Positions 17,390 to 43,643 of a DNA stretch of 64,000 nt are shown in pieces (the stretch's first letter is position 1; each line of letters starts with the position of its first letter). The notes under the pieces are model-generated. The model did no database searches and had not been told where the DNA came from. It was given only the letters and a program-made list of their open reading frames with translations. Origin of the DNA: a virus. Position numbers and translations under genes: made by a program. The DNA is taken from UHGV virus genome UHGV-0090252, one strand, 5' to 3'.

Positions 17390-17812
17390 ATGAAAGAGCT
17401 TATTGGTAAAAGATTGACAGTTTACTGCTCTAAAACAAAGAAACCACTCACTTCTGTGAAGGTTTTTGATGTTGACACCACTGGTGTAGAGTATCCAATC
17501 CAATGCACAATAATTACTCCATTCAATGCAGATGATATGGATTTTAAAGAGTGTGAAGTGATATCTTTTAATGCTGATGGGTATTGGAGAGGTAAGTTAA
17601 ACAAGCAATCAGAAGATTTTGATATGCAAATCATTATCAATGAAGGCTATATCGGTGTAAAAGATATCCTCGTAGAAGCCTATGAAGAAGGTATAATTGA
17701 TATTGTGCATGATGTTGAAAAAGCTTTAAAGCTTGTTATGCCGCATTTAGAATCTGGAAAGCTGACTTTAGAGATGCTTAATAGGGTTATTCGGAGAGCT
17801 TATGAAAATTAA
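17390..17812 (+). CDS. hypothetical protein (140 aa)
   Basis: ORF in gene run. Confidence 0.5.
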   Translation: MKELIGKRLTVYCSKTKKPLTSVKVFDVDTTGVEYPIQCTIITPFNADDMDFKECEVISFNADGYWRGKLNKQSEDFDMQIIINEGYIGVKDILVEAYEEGIIDIVHDVEKALKLVMPHLESGKLTLEMLNRVIRRAYEN

Positions 17813-18251
17813 AGAAGTAGTGCAAAGAGCAATGCTTGACAATTCTACTAAAGATGAGATGTACACAGAAATTTGTGATAAGTTGAATTGCTCAAGACAT
17901 GCTGCTAAGGTTCTCGTACATTGTTTTATCTGGGAATGCTCAGAACGATACATGGAGCATATGCTTAAGAAAGAGATGGGTGTACAGGAGCCTATTGTCA
18001 AGAAGCATCCTTTACTTACTGGTTGGCAGTATGATATAAGAGAAGTTGAGACAGGTCTTTTAGTAGGTAATGGTACAGTCGGTACAATCTTTAGTGATGG
18101 CTCTTATACAATCTTGCTGAAGAATCCTACTAAGGAGTTTGCAAGACTCGACATGTATCTGTTTAAGGTTGCTGAAGATGACTTTATATATTCTCCAGAG
18201 AATGCTTATAAACCAATTTTCAGGGTCTGTAGAGAGGAAGGTGCAAAGTGA
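17802..18251 (+). CDS. hypothetical protein (149 aa)
   Basis: ORF overlapping upstream gene end. Confidence 0.5.
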   Translation: MKIKEVVQRAMLDNSTKDEMYTEICDKLNCSRHAAKVLVHCFIWECSERYMEHMLKKEMGVQEPIVKKHPLLTGWQYDIREVETGLLVGNGTVGTIFSDGSYTILLKNPTKEFARLDMYLFKVAEDDFIYSPENAYKPIFRVCREEGAK

Positions 18252-18820
18252 TTAAAAGAGACTTGAGAGTTATGGAAAAGGGTGATGTAAAAGAAGTTGA
18301 AGGTAACTACCTAGTACTTGACTGGAGTGATGTTCGAGAAGCATTATCCAAAGAAAGCCTTGACATACTAGAGCAGCTTGTCTTCTCAGTACGGCATATC
18401 AGAGAAGTTAAGAATGGTAAAGAGCCATTAGAAGGAATCTTTGTAGAGAAGTCTTATCCGTTCTATGAAGACACTTTACAGAAAGTTAAGATGTACTTTA
18501 AACAGAAGAACCGTAAAGTGGTCACTATGACATCTCTTGGTGGACAGAATATGTCTATTATGGAAGATATCAACCCTAAGAGACCGAGCAAAGGTGTCTG
18601 TATAAAAATCACAGGGCATGAAGAGTATATCTCAGTGGATGATTTTAGTGTGTTCTGTAATGGTTCTGCTGTCTTTAATGGGTTTCACTATGATATCCGA
18701 GTGTACCCAATCAAGGGAGATGCTGTTATGATGCAGATATTCGATAACAACAATGGATTCACTCATTTTTATCAGACAACCAAGTCATCACTGAAGACAG
18801 TTCTGGAAACACTGATTTAA
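18248..18820 (+). CDS. hypothetical protein (190 aa)
   Basis: last gene of the plus-strand module, followed by terminator. Confidence 0.5.
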   Translation: MIKRDLRVMEKGDVKEVEGNYLVLDWSDVREALSKESLDILEQLVFSVRHIREVKNGKEPLEGIFVEKSYPFYEDTLQKVKMYFKQKNRKVVTMTSLGGQNMSIMEDINPKRPSKGVCIKITGHEEYISVDDFSVFCNGSAVFNGFHYDIRVYPIKGDAVMMQIFDNNNGFTHFYQTTKSSLKTVLETLI

Positions 18821-26336: not shown

Positions 26337-27122
26337 TTAGTTCTTTGCGTCTAAGAAGGTAACTTCTGGCGAAGAGAAAACTGTCTCGATATCCTCATCA
26401 GTTCTTGCATAGATGTAGGTGTCTGCATCGCTACCAAATGTCACGGCAATTCTATGATTGCTCTTCGACAGGTGGGTAACTAGAGCGTTACTTAGAGACA
26501 TCTTTTCAACCGGAGGGTTACTTTGATGTATCTTACCTTTTCTTCGTCTGAAGAGGGTAACTGCATTATCCGTGAACACAACTACACCTGCAAAGTATTC
26601 TGGTTCACAGTAGTTCTTCCAACCTGAGCGTAACTTGTGGTACATCTCTCCTTCATAGACATACAGATAAACATCCACACTCTTCATCACCTGATTGATG
26701 ATAACTGTGACAGCTTGAGGGTCAAGTCCACCAATACCTGCACCAATCATAGGTAAACCAACTTTCTTCAACTGATTGACTTCACAGTATCTGTTAAGCT
26801 GTTTCAAAGATGACTCTAAAGCACTGTATCGTGCATCTTTACCAGTATGAAGTTGGGTGTAAAGGTTAGCTATACGACCTTGTTTTAAACGTGCTACAGA
26901 TAAATTACCTAGTAAATTTTCACAGGGTTTGTGACGAATGCCACCTGCAAACAGGTAAACTTCTGTGTCAGTATCATACACTTTTGGATAACGCTTAGAA
27001 ATAGTTGCTGCAATACCTGCACCCATGAAATTCATACAGTTGCAACCATGACCAATGATATCAAATTTACCTTTATCAAATGCTTCAAAGATATCACCTT
27101 TGATGATTTTTACAATACCCAT
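26337..27122 (-). CDS. macro-domain protein (ADP-ribose binding/processing fold) with about 100-aa C-terminal extension
   Basis: 261 aa; GDIFE, FDIIGHGCNCMNFMGAGIA and LPMIGAGIGGL match the diphosphate-binding loops of macro domains. Confidence 0.7.
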   Translation of the reverse strand: MGIVKIIKGDIFEAFDKGKFDIIGHGCNCMNFMGAGIAATISKRYPKVYDTDTEVYLFAGGIRHKPCENLLGNLSVARLKQGRIANLYTQLHTGKDARYSALESSLKQLNRYCEVNQLKKVGLPMIGAGIGGLDPQAVTVIINQVMKSVDVYLYVYEGEMYHKLRSGWKNYCEPEYFAGVVVFTDNAVTLFRRRKGKIHQSNPPVEKMSLSNALVTHLSKSNHRIAVTFGSDADTYIYARTDEDIETVFSSPEVTFLDAKN

Positions 27123-34214: not shown

Positions 34215-34562
34215 CTATCCAATATGCTTGCATGACTCACCTCTCATATTTTTGTAAAGGATAAAGCTTCTGTCATGGACGATACTTGTAGACACTGCAA
34301 AGTTACTTTCAAGCATCTGTTTATTTGGATTGTAGAAGTTTTCTTTAAACTCATCAAGAGCAAATTGGTGATGTTGTGGAAGACCTTTTACACAGACTTT
34401 TATTGTGATTGCTGCTGCAACCTTACCCGTAAGTTCTTCTTTAGCTGCTACTAAAATTTTGTTAAGAAACTTTTTACCATCTTCAGGTTTCTTAATGTTT
34501 TCCCAACGTTCTTCTAGGACAACGTTGATGTTCATCTCTTTGATTTTCATAACTTTTACCAA
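34215..34562 (-). CDS. hypothetical protein (115 aa)
   Basis: ORF in minus-strand run. Confidence 0.5.
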   Translation of the reverse strand: MVKVMKIKEMNINVVLEERWENIKKPEDGKKFLNKILVAAKEELTGKVAAAITIKVCVKGLPQHHQFALDEFKENFYNPNKQMLESNFAVSTSIVHDRSFILYKNMRGESCKHIG

Positions 34563-34900
34563 GTCCAGTTAACAAGTATACCATCAAAACCTTTTGCTAA
34601 AGGTACACCCTCATGTTCATAAAATTCAGGATTAACTTCGAATCCACGATTCTCAATATACTCTATCATGTATTCCATTACAAAGCTAATCTCTTCATAG
34701 TCATCTGGGTCTCTGCCAAAGAACTGTTCTATGACAAACATACCCTCTTTCGTAGCAAACTGACAATGGTGATTATAGATACCTTCACAGAACTTTTCAA
34801 ACTTTTCCTTACCGAGAACTTCAAGGATGTCTGTATAGGCAACTTGTAAGTATTTAGGTTGTACAGGTTTCTTGTTAAACCATATAGAAAGGCTATCCAT
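34556..34900 (-). CDS. hypothetical acidic protein (114 aa)
   Basis: ORF in minus-strand run. Confidence 0.5.
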   Translation of the reverse strand: MDSLSIWFNKKPVQPKYLQVAYTDILEVLGKEKFEKFCEGIYNHHCQFATKEGMFVIEQFFGRDPDDYEEISFVMEYMIEYIENRGFEVNPEFYEHEGVPLAKGFDGILVNWTW

Positions 34901-34917
34901 AGTTTTCTCCAGAAATT

Positions 34918-34938
34918 AAAAAGGCTCCCGTAGGAGCC
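34918..34938 (-). terminator. rho-independent terminator after the NAMPT-like gene
   Basis: GGCTCC-CGTA-GGAGCC hairpin with AAAAA on plus strand to the left. Confidence 0.65.
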
Positions 34939-34953
34939 TCTTATCATATACTT

Positions 34954-36735
34954 TTAAAGCTGCTTGTCAATATTGTTTCGAATATCACCAAGAGTTGTGT
35001 AACCGAACTGCTCAGAGTCACTAAAGACTAAACGTAAAGCACAAGCTGGATGTTCAAGTGCATCTGCAAAGCTCTGGAATCCATAGCCATCTACAGCTTT
35101 CAACTTATCACCATCCCACATAGGTGCTACACCACCAAAAGCAGACTTCTTAACACCACTATCTGTTTTAGGGTCTTTTGCAAGCATAATCTCTTTACCA
35201 CCAATGCTTGCAAGAGTTGCTTTAACAGCAAATGCAAAGGTGTCACGAGTCATGTACTGGTAAGTGTAAGAGCCTACGCCAAACACTACGTTAGAGCTTG
35301 CAAAACCCATTTCATACAGACGCTTCAGTATTTCGTTTGCACGTTCCAGCGTGATAGAGTCGCCATAGATAAGACCGATATGCTCATCCAGTACCTTAAA
35401 CCCTTTAGAGTTGATAGTCCCACCAAAGATGTTGTACAGTGTCTTAATAGCTCCATCAATTTCAGCTACAGGACGTGTTACAACGTTTGCAGAGCCGTTG
35501 ATGTAAGCATCTTTCAGCAACACTGTATCGGCTACTTCAAAGTCTTCTCTGTCAACCACCATTTCATAGCCTTCTGCACGTAACCACCCAGCCATAACAT
35601 AGTTAATATCTTCAAGCTTCATGTTCAGGACGGTGCTCAACATTGTGTCACTGGCATTCTGCTTGATAAGGTGCTCGTAATAAGCCTTCTTAGCACACTC
35701 TAAGTGGATTGCTTTATAACCTGTGACAATATGTACAGGGTCTCCAGAGTCAGGGCGAATTACCAGCTTACCATCACGTTCCATAATTTCTTTACGAAGT
35801 GCTGGTAAGATTTCTGACACAGTTCTCCAGAAGTTATAAGTATCTGAAACAATACTTGCAATACCAGTTGGGTAAGTTTCTGTTAAGAAACGACGGAAGG
35901 TTTGTAACTCACCGTTAAAGCGTCTTTCCTCTTCAATCAATTCATTACCACCTTCCCAAGCGATGTTTGCACACATCACAGAGTGTTCAGTAGCTGGTAC
36001 AGAACTACCAATGTCAGAGATTGGGTAAGACTGTCCATAGATACGTTTAGCTGTGTATACAGCAGGGAAGCTATCAGTCCCTTTAAAGCTGGTTAAGTGA
36101 CCTACAGCGTTAAATGCGTCATCAGTAAAGCCGGACATACCACGCATAGCAAAGTCATGGCACTGATAAGGTAAATGTAAGTCATTGTCGCAAGTAAGGT
36201 CAGCCAACTTCTTACAGATGCGTTTGTAATGTAATGCAATAGTTGCAATGGTGCAAGCCTTCCAAATCTCAGCAGAGAAAGCATCTTCCAGATACCCTGC
36301 TACCCAATGGAAACCTGAAACAGTGTTCTGGAAGACAATCATTGGGACACGCATAGGAACAACTGTACCTTCTTCTACAGCGTATACTTCAACTGGTAGA
36401 TAGCCTAAGTCGTGAAGTGCTTCCCAATGCTCTCGACCGATAGCATCTTTACCCAGAACACCATTCATGACTTCTAAGATTTCATCAATTGCTTCTTTCT
36501 TATCACGTTCAAAGAAAGTGGCGTTCCAGTGGTCTATCAAGTAATCTTTAACAAAACGTTGAATACCAAAAGCCACTACACCGTCAATTGCTAAAGGACT
36601 GTTAAACCATTTATCACTACGTGGTGTCAGGTTGAACATCAAGTATTCTGTTGCACTAGGGTACTGGTAAACATGACCAGATTTGTAAGCATCTGCGTTT
36701 AAACCTGCTGGTACTGCATAAAGTGATTTAGTCAT
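34954..36735 (-). CDS. nicotinamide phosphoribosyltransferase family protein (NAMPT/NadV-like; candidate Namat of NARP1)
   Basis: 593 aa; N-terminal ADAYKSGH substrate-binding motif and overall NAMPT-like sequence; longer than the ~490 aa I expect for NadV; immediately downstream of a Prs-fold gene. Confidence 0.75.
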   Translation of the reverse strand: MTKSLYAVPAGLNADAYKSGHVYQYPSATEYLMFNLTPRSDKWFNSPLAIDGVVAFGIQRFVKDYLIDHWNATFFERDKKEAIDEILEVMNGVLGKDAIGREHWEALHDLGYLPVEVYAVEEGTVVPMRVPMIVFQNTVSGFHWVAGYLEDAFSAEIWKACTIATIALHYKRICKKLADLTCDNDLHLPYQCHDFAMRGMSGFTDDAFNAVGHLTSFKGTDSFPAVYTAKRIYGQSYPISDIGSSVPATEHSVMCANIAWEGGNELIEEERRFNGELQTFRRFLTETYPTGIASIVSDTYNFWRTVSEILPALRKEIMERDGKLVIRPDSGDPVHIVTGYKAIHLECAKKAYYEHLIKQNASDTMLSTVLNMKLEDINYVMAGWLRAEGYEMVVDREDFEVADTVLLKDAYINGSANVVTRPVAEIDGAIKTLYNIFGGTINSKGFKVLDEHIGLIYGDSITLERANEILKRLYEMGFASSNVVFGVGSYTYQYMTRDTFAFAVKATLASIGGKEIMLAKDPKTDSGVKKSAFGGVAPMWDGDKLKAVDGYGFQSFADALEHPACALRLVFSDSEQFGYTTLGDIRNNIDKQL

Positions 36736-36780
36736 CTTTTAATCTCTCTCAAAATGGGGCTTTCAAGCCCCTATAAAGTT

Positions 36781-37662
36781 TCAATCAATGGTTGCTACAG
36801 TAACTTGGGCGTAATGTGTTAAGCCACGGTCTTTAGCTTCACCTAAAGTGTTTGTAGTGTAGATATGGTCAATACCATTGTCAAGTAAGTTTTCAACACC
36901 TTTAGAGAAAATACCATGAGTTACATAGAGTTCCACACGTTTTGCACCTGCTTCACGTAGGTGTTTAGCTGCCTCTACGAAGGTTCGACCACCATCACAG
37001 ATATCATCAAGAATCATGACAGTTTTATCGGTCAAATCAACATCGTCAAGGATTCGCATACCAGTGATTTCTCCAGTCTTAAGATTGCGCACCTTAGACA
37101 TTGTGATATACGGTTTATCCACCTCTTTAGCGGTATCTTCAGTCTTCTTAGCTGCACCTGCATCTGGGGCTACCAAGAAATCAATGCGTGGGTCACTTGC
37201 AAAGTGTACTGCCACATCTTTTTGCTTCATGCTCTGAAAGCACTTAAATAAGTTTTCTGCAACATTACTGTGAGGGTCAAGAGCACATACTGCATCAAAG
37301 CCCATTGCATTAACTAGGTTGGCAAAGACTTTCAGTGCTGCTGCATCACCTTTGAACATGTGGCGGTCATATCGAGCATTTGGTAAGAACCCGAAAACAA
37401 CGGTTTTCATCGCTGATTTCTGGGGAACAAGACTGTCAACGGCATCCTTAGCCAAAGCTAATGCAAACAGTGTATCCTTGTCATATCCCTGTACAGTAAT
37501 TATAACATTATCAATCTTACCAGCATTACGCTCAGTAAACTTAACAAAATCTTCAGAGAAGTTTCCACCAATTTCTCCAGATGGGAATTGAATGATATTA
37601 AATTTTTCTGTGTGGAAGAATTTCTCTTGTGCGGTGACGACGGCTTCAATAACAGTTTTCAT
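36781..37662 (-). CDS. ribose-phosphate pyrophosphokinase (PRPP synthetase) fold protein (candidate Adps of NARP1)
   Basis: 293 aa; ILDDICDGGRTF matches the PRPP-binding loop DDxxDTGGT; adjacent and co-oriented with the NAMPT-like gene. Confidence 0.7.
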   Translation of the reverse strand: MKTVIEAVVTAQEKFFHTEKFNIIQFPSGEIGGNFSEDFVKFTERNAGKIDNVIITVQGYDKDTLFALALAKDAVDSLVPQKSAMKTVVFGFLPNARYDRHMFKGDAAALKVFANLVNAMGFDAVCALDPHSNVAENLFKCFQSMKQKDVAVHFASDPRIDFLVAPDAGAAKKTEDTAKEVDKPYITMSKVRNLKTGEITGMRILDDVDLTDKTVMILDDICDGGRTFVEAAKHLREAGAKRVELYVTHGIFSKGVENLLDNGIDHIYTTNTLGEAKDRGLTHYAQVTVATID

Positions 37663-37673
37663 AGTTTTCTCTC

Positions 37674-37952
37674 TCAGTCAAAAGTTACGTTTGTTACTGC
37701 CATTGCAGATTTGCATTTTGCAGGGTCTACAACGTGATAAAGTACACTACAGTTACCTGTGCTGTCTGGTACAGGCTTTACCCATTGCTGCTTTATAGTT
37801 GGCTCCCCTAAGTCTTTGTAAGAGCCATCTGTAAAGTTGTTTACCATCTCAAGTGCAATTGGTTCTGGAACATGGCCACGTATCATGTACATTTCACAAC
37901 CATTACCGCCTTCACTGACTAATGGTAAAATCTCCCACTTCTCTTTAGCCAT
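37674..37952 (-). CDS. hypothetical protein (92 aa)
   Basis: ORF in minus-strand run. Confidence 0.45.
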   Translation of the reverse strand: MAKEKWEILPLVSEGGNGCEMYMIRGHVPEPIALEMVNNFTDGSYKDLGEPTIKQQWVKPVPDSTGNCSVLYHVVDPAKCKSAMAVTNVTFD

Positions 37953-38460
37953 TATAAGTTGCCCTATAAACTGTCTCGAACTTCAACAGGAGAGATATTG
38001 CCAAATCTGTATAGTTGTTGTCAAGCACATCTGGCATATTATTTTTGATATATTTCTCTTGCTCTTCATAGGTCATCTTAGGTGTGCTTAGAAGGTTGTC
38101 CCCTTGCTTCTGGTTATCAAGTTTAGTCTGGATAAACCAGTTTGCACAGTGATGCTCACCACCCTTTGTAACAGGTTTGTGGTGGCCTAATGTAAATGTT
38201 TGCTTACCTGTATACCTGCAAAGATTGTTCAGTGTTGCAATAGTGTTCTTCACAACACACCATTCATACAGGTTATCTATTGTGTAGTGTGGGTAATAAC
38301 GGACAAGTACTCTTTCACGGAAGTTATCACGATTCCAAAGAACCATGTGATTCGAGTTAGAAGGGTCGTATTGGTGGGAGTCAATGAACTCTTGACGTTC
38401 CTCAAAGCTGAGTCTTAGAACTGACATTGCAGCCGAACGTTTCAGGTTTGACAGATACAT
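37945..38460 (-). CDS. hypothetical protein, possible HNH-type endonuclease
   Basis: 171 aa; GHHKPVTKGGEHHCANW resembles an HNH core but lacks the usual Cys pairs. Confidence 0.35.
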   Translation of the reverse strand: MYLSNLKRSAAMSVLRLSFEERQEFIDSHQYDPSNSNHMVLWNRDNFRERVLVRYYPHYTIDNLYEWCVVKNTIATLNNLCRYTGKQTFTLGHHKPVTKGGEHHCANWFIQTKLDNQKQGDNLLSTPKMTYEEQEKYIKNNMPDVLDNNYTDLAISLLLKFETVYRATYNG

Positions 38461-38834: not shown

Positions 38835-39092
38835 TTATTTAGCCTTCTTATTACGTTTACGGTTACGAGCTTTCTTAGCTGCTCGTTTAATAGCTGCTGC
38901 ACCAGACGGACGATGGGCTTGTTTCTTACCACCTTTGCCACGGCCTACATAGATACTTTTCATAATCTCATTAGCCAGCTTCTCATCCATCTTGAAGTTC
39001 TGCATAAGATGAGTCACATCAACTCCAGTGAGCATACCTAATGAAGCTAGTGCTGCTTTTACTTTTGATTTAAAACTATTCCAGATTCCCAT
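38835..39092 (-). CDS. hypothetical protein with basic C-terminal tail (85 aa)
   Basis: ORF in minus-strand run. Confidence 0.4.
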   Translation of the reverse strand: MGIWNSFKSKVKAALASLGMLTGVDVTHLMQNFKMDEKLANEIMKSIYVGRGKGGKKQAHRPSGAAAIKRAAKKARNRKRNKKAK

Positions 39093-39361
39093 TTCGTATC
39101 TCTCTCAATCTTTTCACAAAATGTTTTAAGTTCTTCTTCAGTGACACCAACAATACTGTCTCCGACGTTTAAATTTGTTTTGTAGAACATTGTGTAGTGA
39201 CCTTTACCGACAACTTCAAATGTTCCAGCCTTCTCAATCTCTGCTAAGGCTTCCATTCCAACATTACCGAAAAGTGAGTTTGTATACTTTCTCCATTCAT
39301 CAAGGAGTTCGGTCTTAACTTTGTAAGTACCTAATAAAGCACTGTTAAAAGAAAGAACCAT
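39059..39361 (-). CDS. hypothetical protein
   Basis: ORF track 39059-39517 trimmed to internal ATG (MVLSFNS) because the upstream part overlaps nrdG. Confidence 0.3.
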   Translation of the reverse strand: MVLSFNSALLGTYKVKTELLDEWRKYTNSLFGNVGMEALAEIEKAGTFEVVGKGHYTMFYKTNLNVGDSIVGVTEEELKTFCEKIERDTKWESGIVLNQK

Positions 39362-39398
39362 TATTTCACCTTTTCCGTAACCCACTTTACGACGAGAC

Positions 39399-39884
39399 TT
39401 ACTCGGCTCTCCACTGACAATCACCTTGCCACCCATACTCTTTTCTCCATAGGTTTTGGTTATCAGAACCACGATATGGCTTAACTGTTGGTTTAGATGA
39501 ATCATACTTACCATCAATCACCACGTCAACATATTTCATCACATCTAGGTGAATTTTTTCGTGTAGTTGAAAACCTGTCCAGAGCCATATAGTCTTCTCT
39601 GGGTAAACAGTTTTAACACGTTTGCATATGTCGGTAACCTCTTGAATATTTCTATCATCCAGAGGTTCTCCACCAAGTATTGACAGCCCACTGACAGCAT
39701 CGTCACCCATTAACTGGATGATTCCGTATAGGTTTGCATAAGTGAACACTTTACCAGCATTAAACTTCCAAGACTCCCTGTTAAAACAGCCTTCACAGTG
39801 ATGTTTACAGCCAGCTACGAAGAGGCTTACACGAACCCCTTCACCATTAGCTGTATCAAATGGTCGAATCTCCATGTAATTCAT
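39399..39884 (-). CDS. nrdG: anaerobic ribonucleotide reductase activating protein (radical SAM)
   Basis: 161 aa; CKHHCEGC radical-SAM cluster motif near N-terminus. Confidence 0.8.
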   Translation of the reverse strand: MNYMEIRPFDTANGEGVRVSLFVAGCKHHCEGCFNRESWKFNAGKVFTYANLYGIIQLMGDDAVSGLSILGGEPLDDRNIQEVTDICKRVKTVYPEKTIWLWTGFQLHEKIHLDVMKYVDVVIDGKYDSSKPTVKPYRGSDNQNLWRKEYGWQGDCQWRAE

Positions 39885-40585: not shown

Positions 40586-40797
40586 AAACTCACCTTAGTT
40601 GGTAATGCACTGAATGCTATAGCTAACCCTAAAAATGGTTTGAAGCATGACCATAAATCCATCTTACCATGATATGAGAAATTCCATTGTGGGTCTGAAA
40701 AACCCCATACCATAACACTAACACCAAAGAAGAAGATTACTATGTGTAGTATGGGTGTCAATACCTTTAAGATTGTTGTCATTGTTAATTCCACCAT
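40582..40797 (-). CDS. hypothetical small membrane protein
   Basis: 71 aa, two hydrophobic segments. Confidence 0.4.
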   Translation of the reverse strand: MVELTMTTILKVLTPILHIVIFFFGVSVMVWGFSDPQWNFSYHGKMDLWSCFKPFLGLAIAFSALPTKVSL

Positions 40798-41171
40798 ATA
40801 GTTTTACCATTATCACATGTGTAAAGATACTCTACAGAAGTTTGTGGGACAAGTACAGTGGTGTTCCCACTAAGTACACTCACAAAGTAAGTAACCTCAC
40901 GATGTTGATGAGTTTTTACACAATTGTTTGCCTTCATCCGTATCACAGTTTTGTATGAATAGAACACCGCCAAGACACAAAGTGTAATAACTCCAACCAT
41001 CATGGCAAACTCAGGCAAAAAATCTGACTGTATGATGTCTCTAAATCGCATTATTCCAAGAATAAATAAGATTATCAGACATACAATCCCACAAACTGCT
41101 ACATAAAGCCACAAGTCCATAATGTAACTCCAAATAAAAAGGTGATGTAAGCCTATCAAGACCCACATCAC
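40785..41171 (-). CDS. hypothetical membrane protein
   Basis: 128 aa, several hydrophobic segments. Confidence 0.45.
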   Translation of the reverse strand: MMWVLIGLHHLFIWSYIMDLWLYVAVCGIVCLIILFILGIMRFRDIIQSDFLPEFAMMVGVITLCVLAVFYSYKTVIRMKANNCVKTHQHREVTYFVSVLSGNTTVLVPQTSVEYLYTCDNGKTIWWN

Positions 41172-41182
41172 ATTGTCAAGTT

Positions 41183-42130
41183 TTACATAGAAATCCTATC
41201 CTTAATTTCTGCCATCTTAGCGTCATTCATTCGAGACTGGCCTTTAATTTTTGTGAATGATAAGTATCCGCACACCCTGTTAATCACAGAGATATCATGT
41301 GAATGACAAACCTCACATTCTTCAACATCAACCTTTGGTCTGTTACCACAATGTTCACAGATTGATAAGTCAAAGTTAAGTCCCTGATAGAAACCTTTCA
41401 ACATCCCTCTTGTAATACAACTCTTAAGTGCTGATAAGTTTTCTGGGTTAGCCACTCTTACATACTGGATTCTGCCGCCTCTACAGATATGGAAGAAGGG
41501 TTCTTCTAAGTCCTGCTTCTCAAATGGTGTAATATCTGCTGCAACATTCATATGGAAACTGTTTGTAAAGTATTCCTTGTCAGAAACGCCTTTGATAACG
41601 CCAAACATATCTCTGAACTGTTTTAGCTGAGTTCCACAAAGTGATTCTGCTGGAGTGCCATAGACTGCATATAAGAAGCCATCTTCATTTTTAAACTCTT
41701 CAGTCTTCATGTTGATATATTCCAGAACATCATATGCAAAACTACAGCTTCCAACTTCATGAAGTCGTTTACCTTCAGCAAGAACAGATAGCTCATCAAG
41801 CGCAGTAACCCCAAAAGAAGCTGTGAAGGACTTCACGATATCCCAGCCAACCTTGTCAGTAGGTTTCTTATTCCCTTTGTACAGACCACCCTGTGTGAAT
41901 GCAAGAGGGTTAGAACTTGCTGGCATATTAGCAATCATTTCGTAACGTTTCTTGTGGAAGCTGCGAACCATTTCTAGGTACTTATCAAGCTCTTTCCAGA
42001 AATCTAAGCCATTTTCTTTAGAATACTGGTAAATCATTGGTAAGTTCAAAGATACAGCACCAATGTTAGCACGACCTACATAAAACTCTTCACCATATTC
42101 GTTATGGTATGGTGATAAAAATGCTCTACA
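41183..42130 (-). CDS. nrdD: anaerobic ribonucleoside-triphosphate reductase, exon 2 (glycyl-radical domain)
   Basis: frame open upstream of the tracked TTG to codon Cys at 42128-42130; contains NLP motif, glycyl-radical RVCGYL and C-terminal CxxC...CxxC; spliced junction gives ...VISPMG|CRAFLSP... Confidence 0.8.
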   Translation of the reverse strand, partial: CRAFLSPYHNEYGEEFYVGRANIGAVSLNLPMIYQYSKENGLDFWKELDKYLEMVRSFHKKRYEMIANMPASSNPLAFTQGGLYKGNKKPTDKVGWDIVKSFTASFGVTALDELSVLAEGKRLHEVGSCSFAYDVLEYINMKTEEFKNEDGFLYAVYGTPAESLCGTQLKQFRDMFGVIKGVSDKEYFTNSFHMNVAADITPFEKQDLEEPFFHICRGGRIQYVRVANPENLSALKSCITRGMLKGFYQGLNFDLSICEHCGNRPKVDVEECEVCHSHDISVINRVCGYLSFTKIKGQSRMNDAKMAEIKDRISM

Positions 42131-42446
42131 CTTATTGTTCAGGTAAGTTCGCTAAGCTTACCCCGCTTTATTCAAGCTGCTTACTGTCGCCAGTAAGTCC
42201 AGACTATATCTTCTACTTATTTCTAAGTAGCGTACCATTTCGAGTCGCTTGACCCTACACCGCTACATTCATCACGGTTAGTCGTTCGGCATTTAGATGT
42301 ATTCAAACTCATATTCGAAGTTATTTGGCATGTAAGACTCCTATGTTGTATAGTTTCTTACATCGTACATCATTTAGCACAGGATTGTCTACATCTGTAG
42401 AGTTTCCCTGTTTAGGCACGTTTTAGATGAGCTATAGAGCTTGTTA
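42131..42446 (-). mobile_element. group I self-splicing intron (316 nt, no internal ORF) in nrdD
   Basis: exon 1 ends in U, intron ends in G; minus-strand R-like element CGAACGACTAA and S-like element AAGATATAGTC form P7; 7-bp P9-like hairpin CTTACTG/CAGTAAG; spliced product about 714 aa. Confidence 0.8.
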
Positions 42447-43643
42447 ACCCATCGGGGAAATTACCTTACCAGAACGCTCAAAAGCCTCTGCTACAGCACC
42501 ATGTCCAGTTACACTTAAGAAATCTGGATACATAGCTTTAGAGCAACACTCAATAGCTTTTTCAAACAACCTTGCTTGGCATACATCAAGCTTATGTCTC
42601 GTTTCTTCATAGATATACACAAGTTTAGGGAACACAACAGGTTTTTTGCTTTTTCCTTGCCCGTTCATCCTTACGTTAAGGATTGTATTGGCAATCATAA
42701 ACTGAAGGCGGTTATCTTCATTGTGCATATCTGGTTCCAACAGACCAAATGTCAGAGTAGTAAATGCAAAATCACCGCGACTGCAAGGAACAGTGTTAAG
42801 TTTCATTTCAAGAGATTGGAAACCTTGTGTTAACTCATTCTGTAATTGCTCCATTACGTAATTATAGTGTTGCTCTTTAGGGATTCCGTACTCTTCAGCT
42901 TTCTTTGAGTGGTACACTAAAGACTTCTTAGCATACGGTACAAGTACCTTATCAATCTCTGCTAAAGTAAAGCCACCAAATTGCTGTGCAGTTGCTGAAA
43001 GAACTACATCACCAATAACCTGTAAGGCTGACAGCACAGACTTCGGTTCACAGTATTCAATGCCAGACATTTCAAAGCCACCTTTCAGCACTTTACCAAT
43101 GTCAAACAGGCAACAGTTGATACCACCAAAAATTAGGTCTCTTAAATCATGGATATAGATAAACCCTTTTTCAATGGCTTCAAGTTCCTCTGGTGTTAAA
43201 TGGTACTGTTTAAAGATTTCTTTAGTCAGGTAACCACGAATAATTGAGCCTTTTGTAGAAATTAAACTGCTGTCAAAGTTAGCATTCTCTCTGTCGCCTA
43301 AGAAGAGTGTATCTTTGGTCTTCTGGTAGAGTTCATCCCAATTTTGAGCAACTTCTTTACGGTAATTTCTATATGTTGAGTAAGACTCATAAATCTCGTG
43401 ATTGACTTCTGCCAAAGCACCCTCAACAATACTGTGAATATCATTTACTGAAATGAGTAAATTATTCTGCTTAGTGGATTTTACCAGAATCCTCATAAAT
43501 GCTGACTCAAGAGCTTGGGTAACATCTGGTGGTAGTTCTTTATACCCAACCCTATTAGCTGACTTAGTGACTGCTGCTAAAACTTTTTTGATATCTGGTT
43601 CTTCGAGTGAGCCGTTCTTTTTAATAATCTGTACTTTGTTCAT
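42447..43643 (-). CDS. nrdD: anaerobic ribonucleoside-triphosphate reductase, exon 1 (ATP-cone and N-terminal half)
   Basis: 399-aa ORF; the in-frame TAA that ends the track ORF lies at the start of the intron. Confidence 0.8.

Follow-up and report, generated by a model that had tools for sequence, protein, structure and literature searches.

A Felixounavirus genome with a close copy of the founding NARP1 operon, an inserted Namat subdomain and a distant Macro-domain gene

The window analysed here is a 64,000-nucleotide stretch of the virus genome UHGV-0090252. On its minus strand lie two adjacent open reading frames (ORFs), both starting with ATG, that we assign to the NARP1 enzymes Adps and Namat. 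The ORF at 36781-37662 encodes 293 amino acids (aa) and the ORF at 34954-36735 encodes 593 aa; the spacer between them (36736-36780) is 45 nt long. An earlier note on this DNA had described a co-oriented pair with a 45-nt gap and a terminator at its end, and the ORF list and a hairpin scan bear out all three points. The features of this cassette are:

36781-37662, minus strand: adps, probable ADP-ribose pyrophosphokinase of the Prs fold, 293 aa; NARP1 enzyme 1; TIGR01251, phrog_619, bas63_0079
34954-36735, minus strand: namat, probable nicotinamide ADP-ribose transferase of the NAMPT fold, 593 aa; NARP1 enzyme 2; NF006629, bas63_0080
34919-34942, minus strand: intrinsic-terminator-like hairpin closing the cassette (10-bp stem, 5 GC pairs, T-run), 12 nt past the namat stop

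A megablast search with region 34500-38000 matched 260 phage records, nearly all Felix O1-like. Phages Tribble (96.9% nucleotide identity) and JohannRWettstein (Bas63, 96.1%) are the top matches. The window is collinear with Bas63 in reverse complement, from Bas63 position 87100 down to 27363 and then from 3555 down to 1. This similarity identifies the window as a Felixounavirus genome. The small protein is identical to bas63_0079 (annotated 'ribose-phosphate pyrophosphokinase') at 291 of 293 positions (99%), and the large one to bas63_0080 ('nicotinamide phosphoribosyltransferase') at 572 of 593 (96%). Both alignments are gap-free, over proteins of the same length, so that the window departs from Bas63 by 2 substitutions in Adps and 21 in Namat. 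Besides the genus, the two phages share the gene order, the 45-nt spacer with its hairpin, and the flanking genes, rIIA/rIIB downstream and NrdG/NrdD upstream.

The family assignments of both proteins are far beyond chance. Adps matches the ribose-phosphate diphosphokinase model TIGR01251 (E 1.2e-40, 139 bits for a cut-off of 113) and phrog_619 (E 1.4e-99). The loop ILDDICDGGRTF, singled out in the earlier note, is found at aa 217-228. The protein scores far below the cut-off of every Prs equivalog model, for example 114 vs 296 and 101.7 vs 297 bits. By these scores, Adps has the Prs fold but is no bona fide ribose-phosphate diphosphokinase. Its best match in the PDB is an archaeal Prs (E 1.5e-18); no structure of an Adps was present among the PDB entries searched. 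The ribose-5-phosphate loop reads DDICDGGRT in Adps vs DDMADTCGT in human PRS1, and we infer from the alignment that the arginine of the Adps loop accommodates the diphosphate of ADP-ribose (ADPR). As regards membership of the Adps clade, the gene adjoins a co-oriented Namat homologue and its product is 99% identical to the Adps of Bas63. A Namat gene is found near 97% of Adps-clade genes, and Bas63 Adps is one query defining that clade (bioRxiv 10.1101/2024.02.11.579819). Relative to the window protein, Felixounavirus Adps falls into two allele classes, one of at least 95% identity (about 50 records) and one of about 77-82% (about 200 records). The Adps of phage garuso is 100% identical to that of the window.

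For the large protein, the family matches are to NF006629 (E 1.8e-140), phrog_448 (E 2.8e-201) and, in Pfam, NAPRTase and NAMPT_N. The ADAYKSGH motif reported in the earlier note is found at aa 14-21. In sequence comparison the protein scores 431 bits with Namat vs 352 bits with the NadV of H. ducreyi (HdNadV), and its best PDB match in both sequence and fold is SPbetaL1 Namat (9W5W/9W5X). The AlphaFold2 (AF2) model (predicted local distance difference test, pLDDT, 92.8; predicted template-modelling score, pTM, 0.91) fits the Namat crystal structures best, with E 1.8e-53 and a target-normalised TM of 0.95. HdNadV and mammalian NAMPT rank below Namat in this fold comparison. In an alignment of 33 sequences, D15, Y17, F195, R198, D221, A248, H251, R327, D329 and G458-D459 are invariant. 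F195, R198, D221, R327, D329 and H251 are the equivalents of SPbetaL1 Namat F189, R192, D215, R306, D308 and the catalytic histidine, respectively. The contacts to nicotinamide, ribose and phosphate are conserved with SPbetaL1 Namat.

A selectivity clamp has been defined on the crystal structure of SPbetaL1 Namat. Its helix carries the motif GSxPhixPhixPhiTRD, in which positions 3 and 7 are aromatics that stack on the adenine, and a variable clamp loop provides a third stacking residue; the third position of this loop is Arg, or it is Lys or Tyr and the stacking residue comes next (PMC12774641). The corresponding features in the window are:

35242-35274, minus strand: clamp-helix motif GSYTYQYMTRD, aa 488-498, with aromatics Y490 and Y494, located by alignment to SPbetaL1 Namat, HdNadV and Xcc Nampt
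36607-36618, minus strand: clamp-loop residues S40-D41-K42-W43, with Lys third and Trp fourth, identical to Bas63

In the same alignment the helix reads GSFTYQYNTRD in SPbetaL1 Namat, GAQTYQRNTRD in HdNadV and GGALLQKVDRD in Xcc Nampt. Both aromatics are therefore shared with SPbetaL1 Namat, whereas HdNadV and Xcc Nampt lack them. In the clamp loop, SPbetaL1 Namat uses Arg40 and the window protein has Lys42-Trp43. The Bas63 loop is described as a Lys followed by the stacking residue (PMC12774641), and the K42-W43 loop of the window would by this correspondence provide the stacking residue. Gene identity, gene order, catalytic residues and the adenine-clamp motif are established in the window.

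NARP1 was discovered on Bas63 genes 79-80 by deletion and metabolomics (Osterman et al., bioRxiv 10.1101/2024.02.11.579819). According to that study, Bas63 without these genes forms about 20-fold fewer plaques on SIR2-HerA and causes deeper NAD+ loss, and wild-type Bas63 partly restores NAD+. ADPR-pyrophosphate (ADPR-PP) was present only with wild-type Bas63 and the defence system together, and the effect is independent of host pncC and nadR. In vitro, the Adps of SPbetaL1 converts ADPR and ATP to ADPR-PP, and its Namat converts ADPR-PP and nicotinamide to NAD+. NARP1 counters type I Thoeris, DSR1, DSR2, SIR2-HerA and SEFIR, and is present in 859 phage genomes (4.3%) (bioRxiv 10.1101/2024.02.11.579819). 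Transposed to the window phage, a host defence of SIR2, TIR or SEFIR type would split NAD+ into ADP-ribose and nicotinamide. Adps would then form ADPR-pyrophosphate by moving pyrophosphate from ATP to ADP-ribose, and Namat would swap the pyrophosphate for nicotinamide. NAD+ would be formed directly, with no need for a nicotinamide mononucleotide (NMN) intermediate or an NMN adenylyltransferase (NMNAT), and the phage would replicate despite NAD+-depleting defences.

We conclude that the gene pair is the NARP1 operon, orthologous to Bas63 genes 79-80, and that it very probably works as NARP1. Because of its near-identity to the founding Bas63 operon, the system found here is already known. NARP1, with Adps and Namat as its enzymes, had been proposed in the earlier note; that near-identity and the Namat clamp motif support the proposal. 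The same note considered sequence by itself insufficient to tell Adps/Namat from Prs/NadV. This statement is out of date, since near-identity to the founding operon and the published clamp motif GSxPhixPhixPhiTRD do separate them. The profile and structure comparison it had called for places the large protein closest to Namat and the small one below all Prs equivalog cut-offs.

Several points weigh against this conclusion. The Bas63 protein 'did not purify well' (bioRxiv 10.1101/2024.02.11.579819), which is why the in vitro reactions were shown with SPbetaL1 homologues. The chemistry thus rests on homologues of about 38% identity that lack the large insertion of the window Namat, and it is by analogy with them that this phage's own proteins would have the same function. 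The preference for ADPR-PP over phosphoribosyl pyrophosphate (PRPP) and the direct formation of NAD+ were measured for the SPbetaL1 and P. foliorum enzymes only (bioRxiv 10.1101/2024.02.11.579819; PMC12774641). The insertion, of 72-77 aa, may affect the activity or specificity of the window Namat. Namat also retains some PRPP-to-NMN activity in vitro (PMC12774641), so that an NMN side-route is possible. Finally, the absence of an NMNAT rests on annotation and on a scan that was not exhaustive. What keeps us short of certainty is that the reactions were assayed with enzymes of 38% identity that lack the insertion.

The window Namat has 593 aa vs 491-496 aa in SPbetaL1 Namat (491 aa) and HdNadV. 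Its HMMER match is split into residues 5-350 and 427-585. The earlier note had remarked on an excess of about 100 aa and suggested an inserted or extra domain. This is correct, the excess being made up of one main insertion, a second one of about 14 aa and smaller additions:

Main insertion: net 72-77 aa, between the RPDSGDP strand and the next helix (residues 338-428, 91 residues); not in SPbetaL1 Namat
35458-35709, minus strand: lineage-specific part of this insertion, aa ~343-426, a predicted small alpha/beta subdomain in place of a 14-19 aa loop, as delimited in the 33-sequence alignment
Second insertion: residues 256-275, about 14 aa; not in SPbetaL1 Namat
Clamp loop (SCL region): about 4 aa extra
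C-terminal additions: about 6 aa near the C-terminus

The same loop region has 14-19 residues in relatives of 488-507 aa, and 29 in one relative of 507 aa. The insertion is modelled confidently both in the whole-protein AF2 model and alone (pLDDT 93.4, pTM 0.82). The predicted architecture is an alpha/beta unit of three helices and three strands. No fold relative of the modelled insertion was recognisable in a structure search, and a Pfam scan of the insertion gave no match. In PMC12774641 the word 'insert' is found once only, in the cloning methods. By tblastn, the insertion occurs only in NAMPT-annotated genes of Ounavirinae (276 records), with identities of 84-97% in Felixounavirus, falling to about 50% in Mooglevirus and to about 30% in phages of Erwinia and Yersinia. 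Unrelated insertions occupy the same loop in other Namat lineages of the alignment. An exhaustive HMMER search against 1.84 billion representatives returned four matches to the insertion, three of them Namats or a Namat fragment. The fourth (P0123) is a secreted-looking metagenomic protein of 247 aa with tandem DELGEDGWELVAVTEDADAFYTLFFKR repeats. It aligns, with a weak E of 7e-4, to the EGYEMVVDREDF...TVLLK part of the insertion (aa ~381-420). This match may be due to chance or to a distantly shared small domain.

The insertion evolves about 5 times faster than the remaining Namat. Among close relatives it is 82% identical vs 97% for the rest of the protein, and 14 of the 21 Namat substitutions relative to Bas63 lie within residues 357-413, inside the insertion. 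In the Bas63 comparison, the ratio of nonsynonymous to synonymous divergence (dN/dS) is 0.18 in the insertion, with a synonymous divergence (dS) of 0.52; elsewhere dN/dS is 0.015-0.07 and dS 0.15-0.17. Positive selection was considered and rejected, as dN/dS is 0.18 and dS is also about 3 times higher there. The raised dS suggests instead that the insertion is a recombined, mosaic segment under weaker purifying selection, in an otherwise conserved gene. Residues 343-426 show 97% protein identity to Salmonella phage UAB_69.

Outside the cassette, the window encodes a Macro-domain protein:

26337-27122, minus strand: Macro-domain 'phosphatase', 261 aa, orthologue of bas63_0095 ('putative phosphatase')

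The gene lies on the same strand as the cassette, 7.8 kb downstream and 15 genes away. Its product matches PF01661 (E 5.2e-7, 30.1 bits, above the Pfam cut-off of 22) and phrog_335 (E 6.9e-115). A connection with NARP1 is suggested by recent work on RES-domain defence (aRES), which yields ADPR-1''-phosphate, a product unusable by NARP1 (Osterman et al. 2026, bioRxiv 10.64898/2026.01.28.702374). In the same study, 15% of NARP1 operons, surveyed over two genes on each side of NARP1, were found to include a Macro-domain phosphatase, Adpp, that restores ADPR; this arrangement is named NARP1-AP (Adps-Adpp-Namat, as in Vibrio phage Gary). The order Adps-Macro-Namat is also found in Vibrio phages K412 and Ceto; Pseudomonas phage JS has its Macro gene two genes downstream of Namat. 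The criterion for NARP1-AP is a Macro gene within two genes, and the sole Macro gene found in the window is the one 7.8 kb off. In the five small ORFs next to the cassette, Pfam and PHROG scans revealed no Macro, RyR or other NAD-related domain, with no Macro match at E<=1.

The window Macro protein could be an Adpp-like ADPR-1''-phosphate phosphatase that feeds Adps and extends protection to RES-type NAD+ phosphorylases (aRES), as in NARP1-AP. This addition, compatible with NARP1, is a tentative one, and we judge it rather less probable than its opposite. The window shares the core enzymes with NARP1-AP, and its Macro protein shares phrog_335 with the operon-embedded phosphatase of K412. It is 27% identical to the Macro protein of K412 (E 1e-12), 30% to that of Ceto (E 2e-17) and 31% to that of JS (E 9e-15). 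This is the level of similarity between the K412 and Ceto proteins themselves (33%, E 5e-15). Since the published survey was limited to two genes of NARP1, it would miss a gene 15 genes away. However, Macro genes of the phrog_335 type occur in about 3000 phage records, T4-like phages among them. The T4-like copies are closer relatives of the window protein (33-37% identity), and T4-like phages were unseen among the Adps tblastn hits. In addition, the best solved relatives are of the OARD1/TARG1 type, Poa1p matching weakly and over the N-terminus only. The window protein also has an extra C-terminal region of about 100 aa. Literature searches for the catalytic residues of Adpp and Poa1p, and for Felixounavirus linked to NARP1 or Macro, turned up nothing usable.

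A broader version of this idea would describe an extended Felixounavirus NARP1 with two additions: the Macro protein, converting ADPR-1''-phosphate to ADPR in trans, and the Namat subdomain found only in Ounavirinae, acting as a functional module. We regard it as a speculative possibility, with the odds against it. With the first addition, these phages would resist RES-type NAD+ phosphorylases, though the two-gene survey would class them as plain NARP1. The Namat subdomain, instead of being a tolerated decoration, could for example have a part in regulation, in binding a partner or in escaping a host inhibitor.

Classical salvage fares much worse and is very improbable. Here, a true PRPP synthetase and a NadV/NAMPT enzyme would make NMN, which host NadR or PncC would turn into NAD+, as a metabolic boost and not an anti-defence function. 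The Prs and NAPRTase/NAMPT names in the databases and the Pfam and NCBIfam matches favour it, as does the NMN-forming activity of Namat in vitro, about half that of human NAMPT (PMC12774641). But SPbetaL1 Adps gave no measurable product in a Prs-type assay (bioRxiv 10.1101/2024.02.11.579819), the window Adps is below all Prs equivalog thresholds, and the clamp motif of the window protein matches that of Namat and not that of NadV. The NAMPT fold and the catalytic core, including the catalytic histidine, are common to the window protein, the NAMPT of NARP2 (KVP40), HdNadV (9KE8/9KEO), Xcc Nampt (7YQO) and human NAMPT. The NadV/Nampt enzymes differ in a clamp helix devoid of the two aromatics, in the use of PRPP and in the need for an NMNAT, none being seen here.

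The weakest alternative, a NARP2-type pathway as in Vibrio phage KVP40, where a NAMPT and a phage NMNAT make NAD+ from PRPP and nicotinamide, is in agreement with the presence of a NAMPT-family gene but is barely conceivable, as the partner gene is of the Prs-like kind that defines NARP1, and no NMNAT is annotated throughout the collinear Bas63 genome or found in the cassette neighbours or the scanned ORFs of three window-specific segments. The ORFs of these segments (17396-18263, 59269-59885 and 62718-64000) contain no NAD-related domain, NMNAT included, regions 38955-39400, 40754-41116 and 62212-62389 being only partly covered or unscanned. To this extent, which is not exhaustive, Bas63 annotation and scan support the statement of the earlier note that no NMNAT is visible. 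With no NMNAT seen and no Macro or RyR domain in the flanking ORFs, the operon is a plain two-gene NARP1, and neither NARP2 nor, by the two-gene criterion, NARP1-AP.

The transcription context of the NARP1 operon includes the following features, in addition to the terminator-like hairpin described above:

38500-38478, minus strand: upstream terminator-like hairpin
37945-38460, minus strand: 171-aa ORF, phrog_3500, weak HNH-endonuclease similarity; first gene past the upstream terminator
37674-37952, minus strand: 92-aa ORF, phrog_4726, directly upstream of adps
36756-36771, minus strand: spacer hairpin GGGGCU-UGAA-AGCCCC, followed by AUUUUG and the namat ribosome-binding site GAGAGAGA

The hairpins at 38500-38478 and 34942-34919 bracket four co-oriented genes, namely the 171-aa ORF, the 92-aa ORF, adps and namat. 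The first two may be co-transcribed with NARP1. The same four-gene order is found in two further Ounavirinae genera, represented by Citrobacter phage Moogle and Erwinia phage Hena2. The spacer hairpin has a predicted folding energy of -14 kcal/mol (z -3.4) and is identical in Bas63 although the flanking bases vary. It is possibly a weak attenuator or an RNA-stability element. A role as a conserved regulator was rejected, since Moogle and Hena2 lack the hairpin that Bas63 shares with the window. An Rfam scan of the cassette revealed no RNA family. In Moogle, the adps-namat spacer contains an HNH homing endonuclease gene (L006 1938-2453), which makes it a homing site in that phage. For the Felixounaviruses ULIM3 and D4, an HNH endonuclease, which may lie in the spacer or elsewhere, is listed among the features of a two-piece match to the region.

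Other mobile elements are found further away. The anaerobic ribonucleotide reductase gene nrdD, with exon ORFs 42444-43643 and 41183-42049, is interrupted by a group I intron at 42180-42477 (minus strand; Rfam RF00028, 55 bits). This intron is about 423 nt shorter than that of Bas63 and is devoid of a homing endonuclease ORF, whereas the Bas63 intron carries bas63_0068. An ORF for a homing endonuclease with HNH_3 and AP2 domains (59499-60002, plus strand) overlaps the 3' end of the DNA polymerase gene (56818-59517). This segment is unmatched in Bas63, where another putative homing endonuclease takes the corresponding position. Region 3778-8669 (minus strand) holds 25 clustered tRNA genes, as in other Felix O1-like phages. 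Region 12704-13693 gives off-diagonal BLAST matches, of 67-71% identity and with an offset of about 250 nt, to Bas63 76874-77869, which encodes an immunoglobulin-like (Ig-like) domain protein. These offset matches point to tandem Ig-like domain repeats. Regions 17396-18263 and 62718-64000 have no nucleotide match in Bas63; their ORFs, of 140, 149, 200 and 146 aa, have no Pfam match.

The founding experiments used a 96%-identical phage, and the cassette therefore adds no new biology. Its presence means that the window phage, in common with about 4% of sequenced phages, would be able to reverse the NAD+ depletion caused by SIR2, TIR and SEFIR defences. This is relevant to host-range prediction and to the choice of therapeutic Felix O1-like phages. 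Two features may be worth specialist attention. One is the orphan subdomain in the Namat of the founding phage, which is modelled with confidence and evolves fast; the other is the Adpp-like Macro protein encoded outside the operon. Should the Macro protein act on ADPR-1''-phosphate, phages that counter RES-type NADases would be more numerous than the reported 15% of NARP1 carriers.

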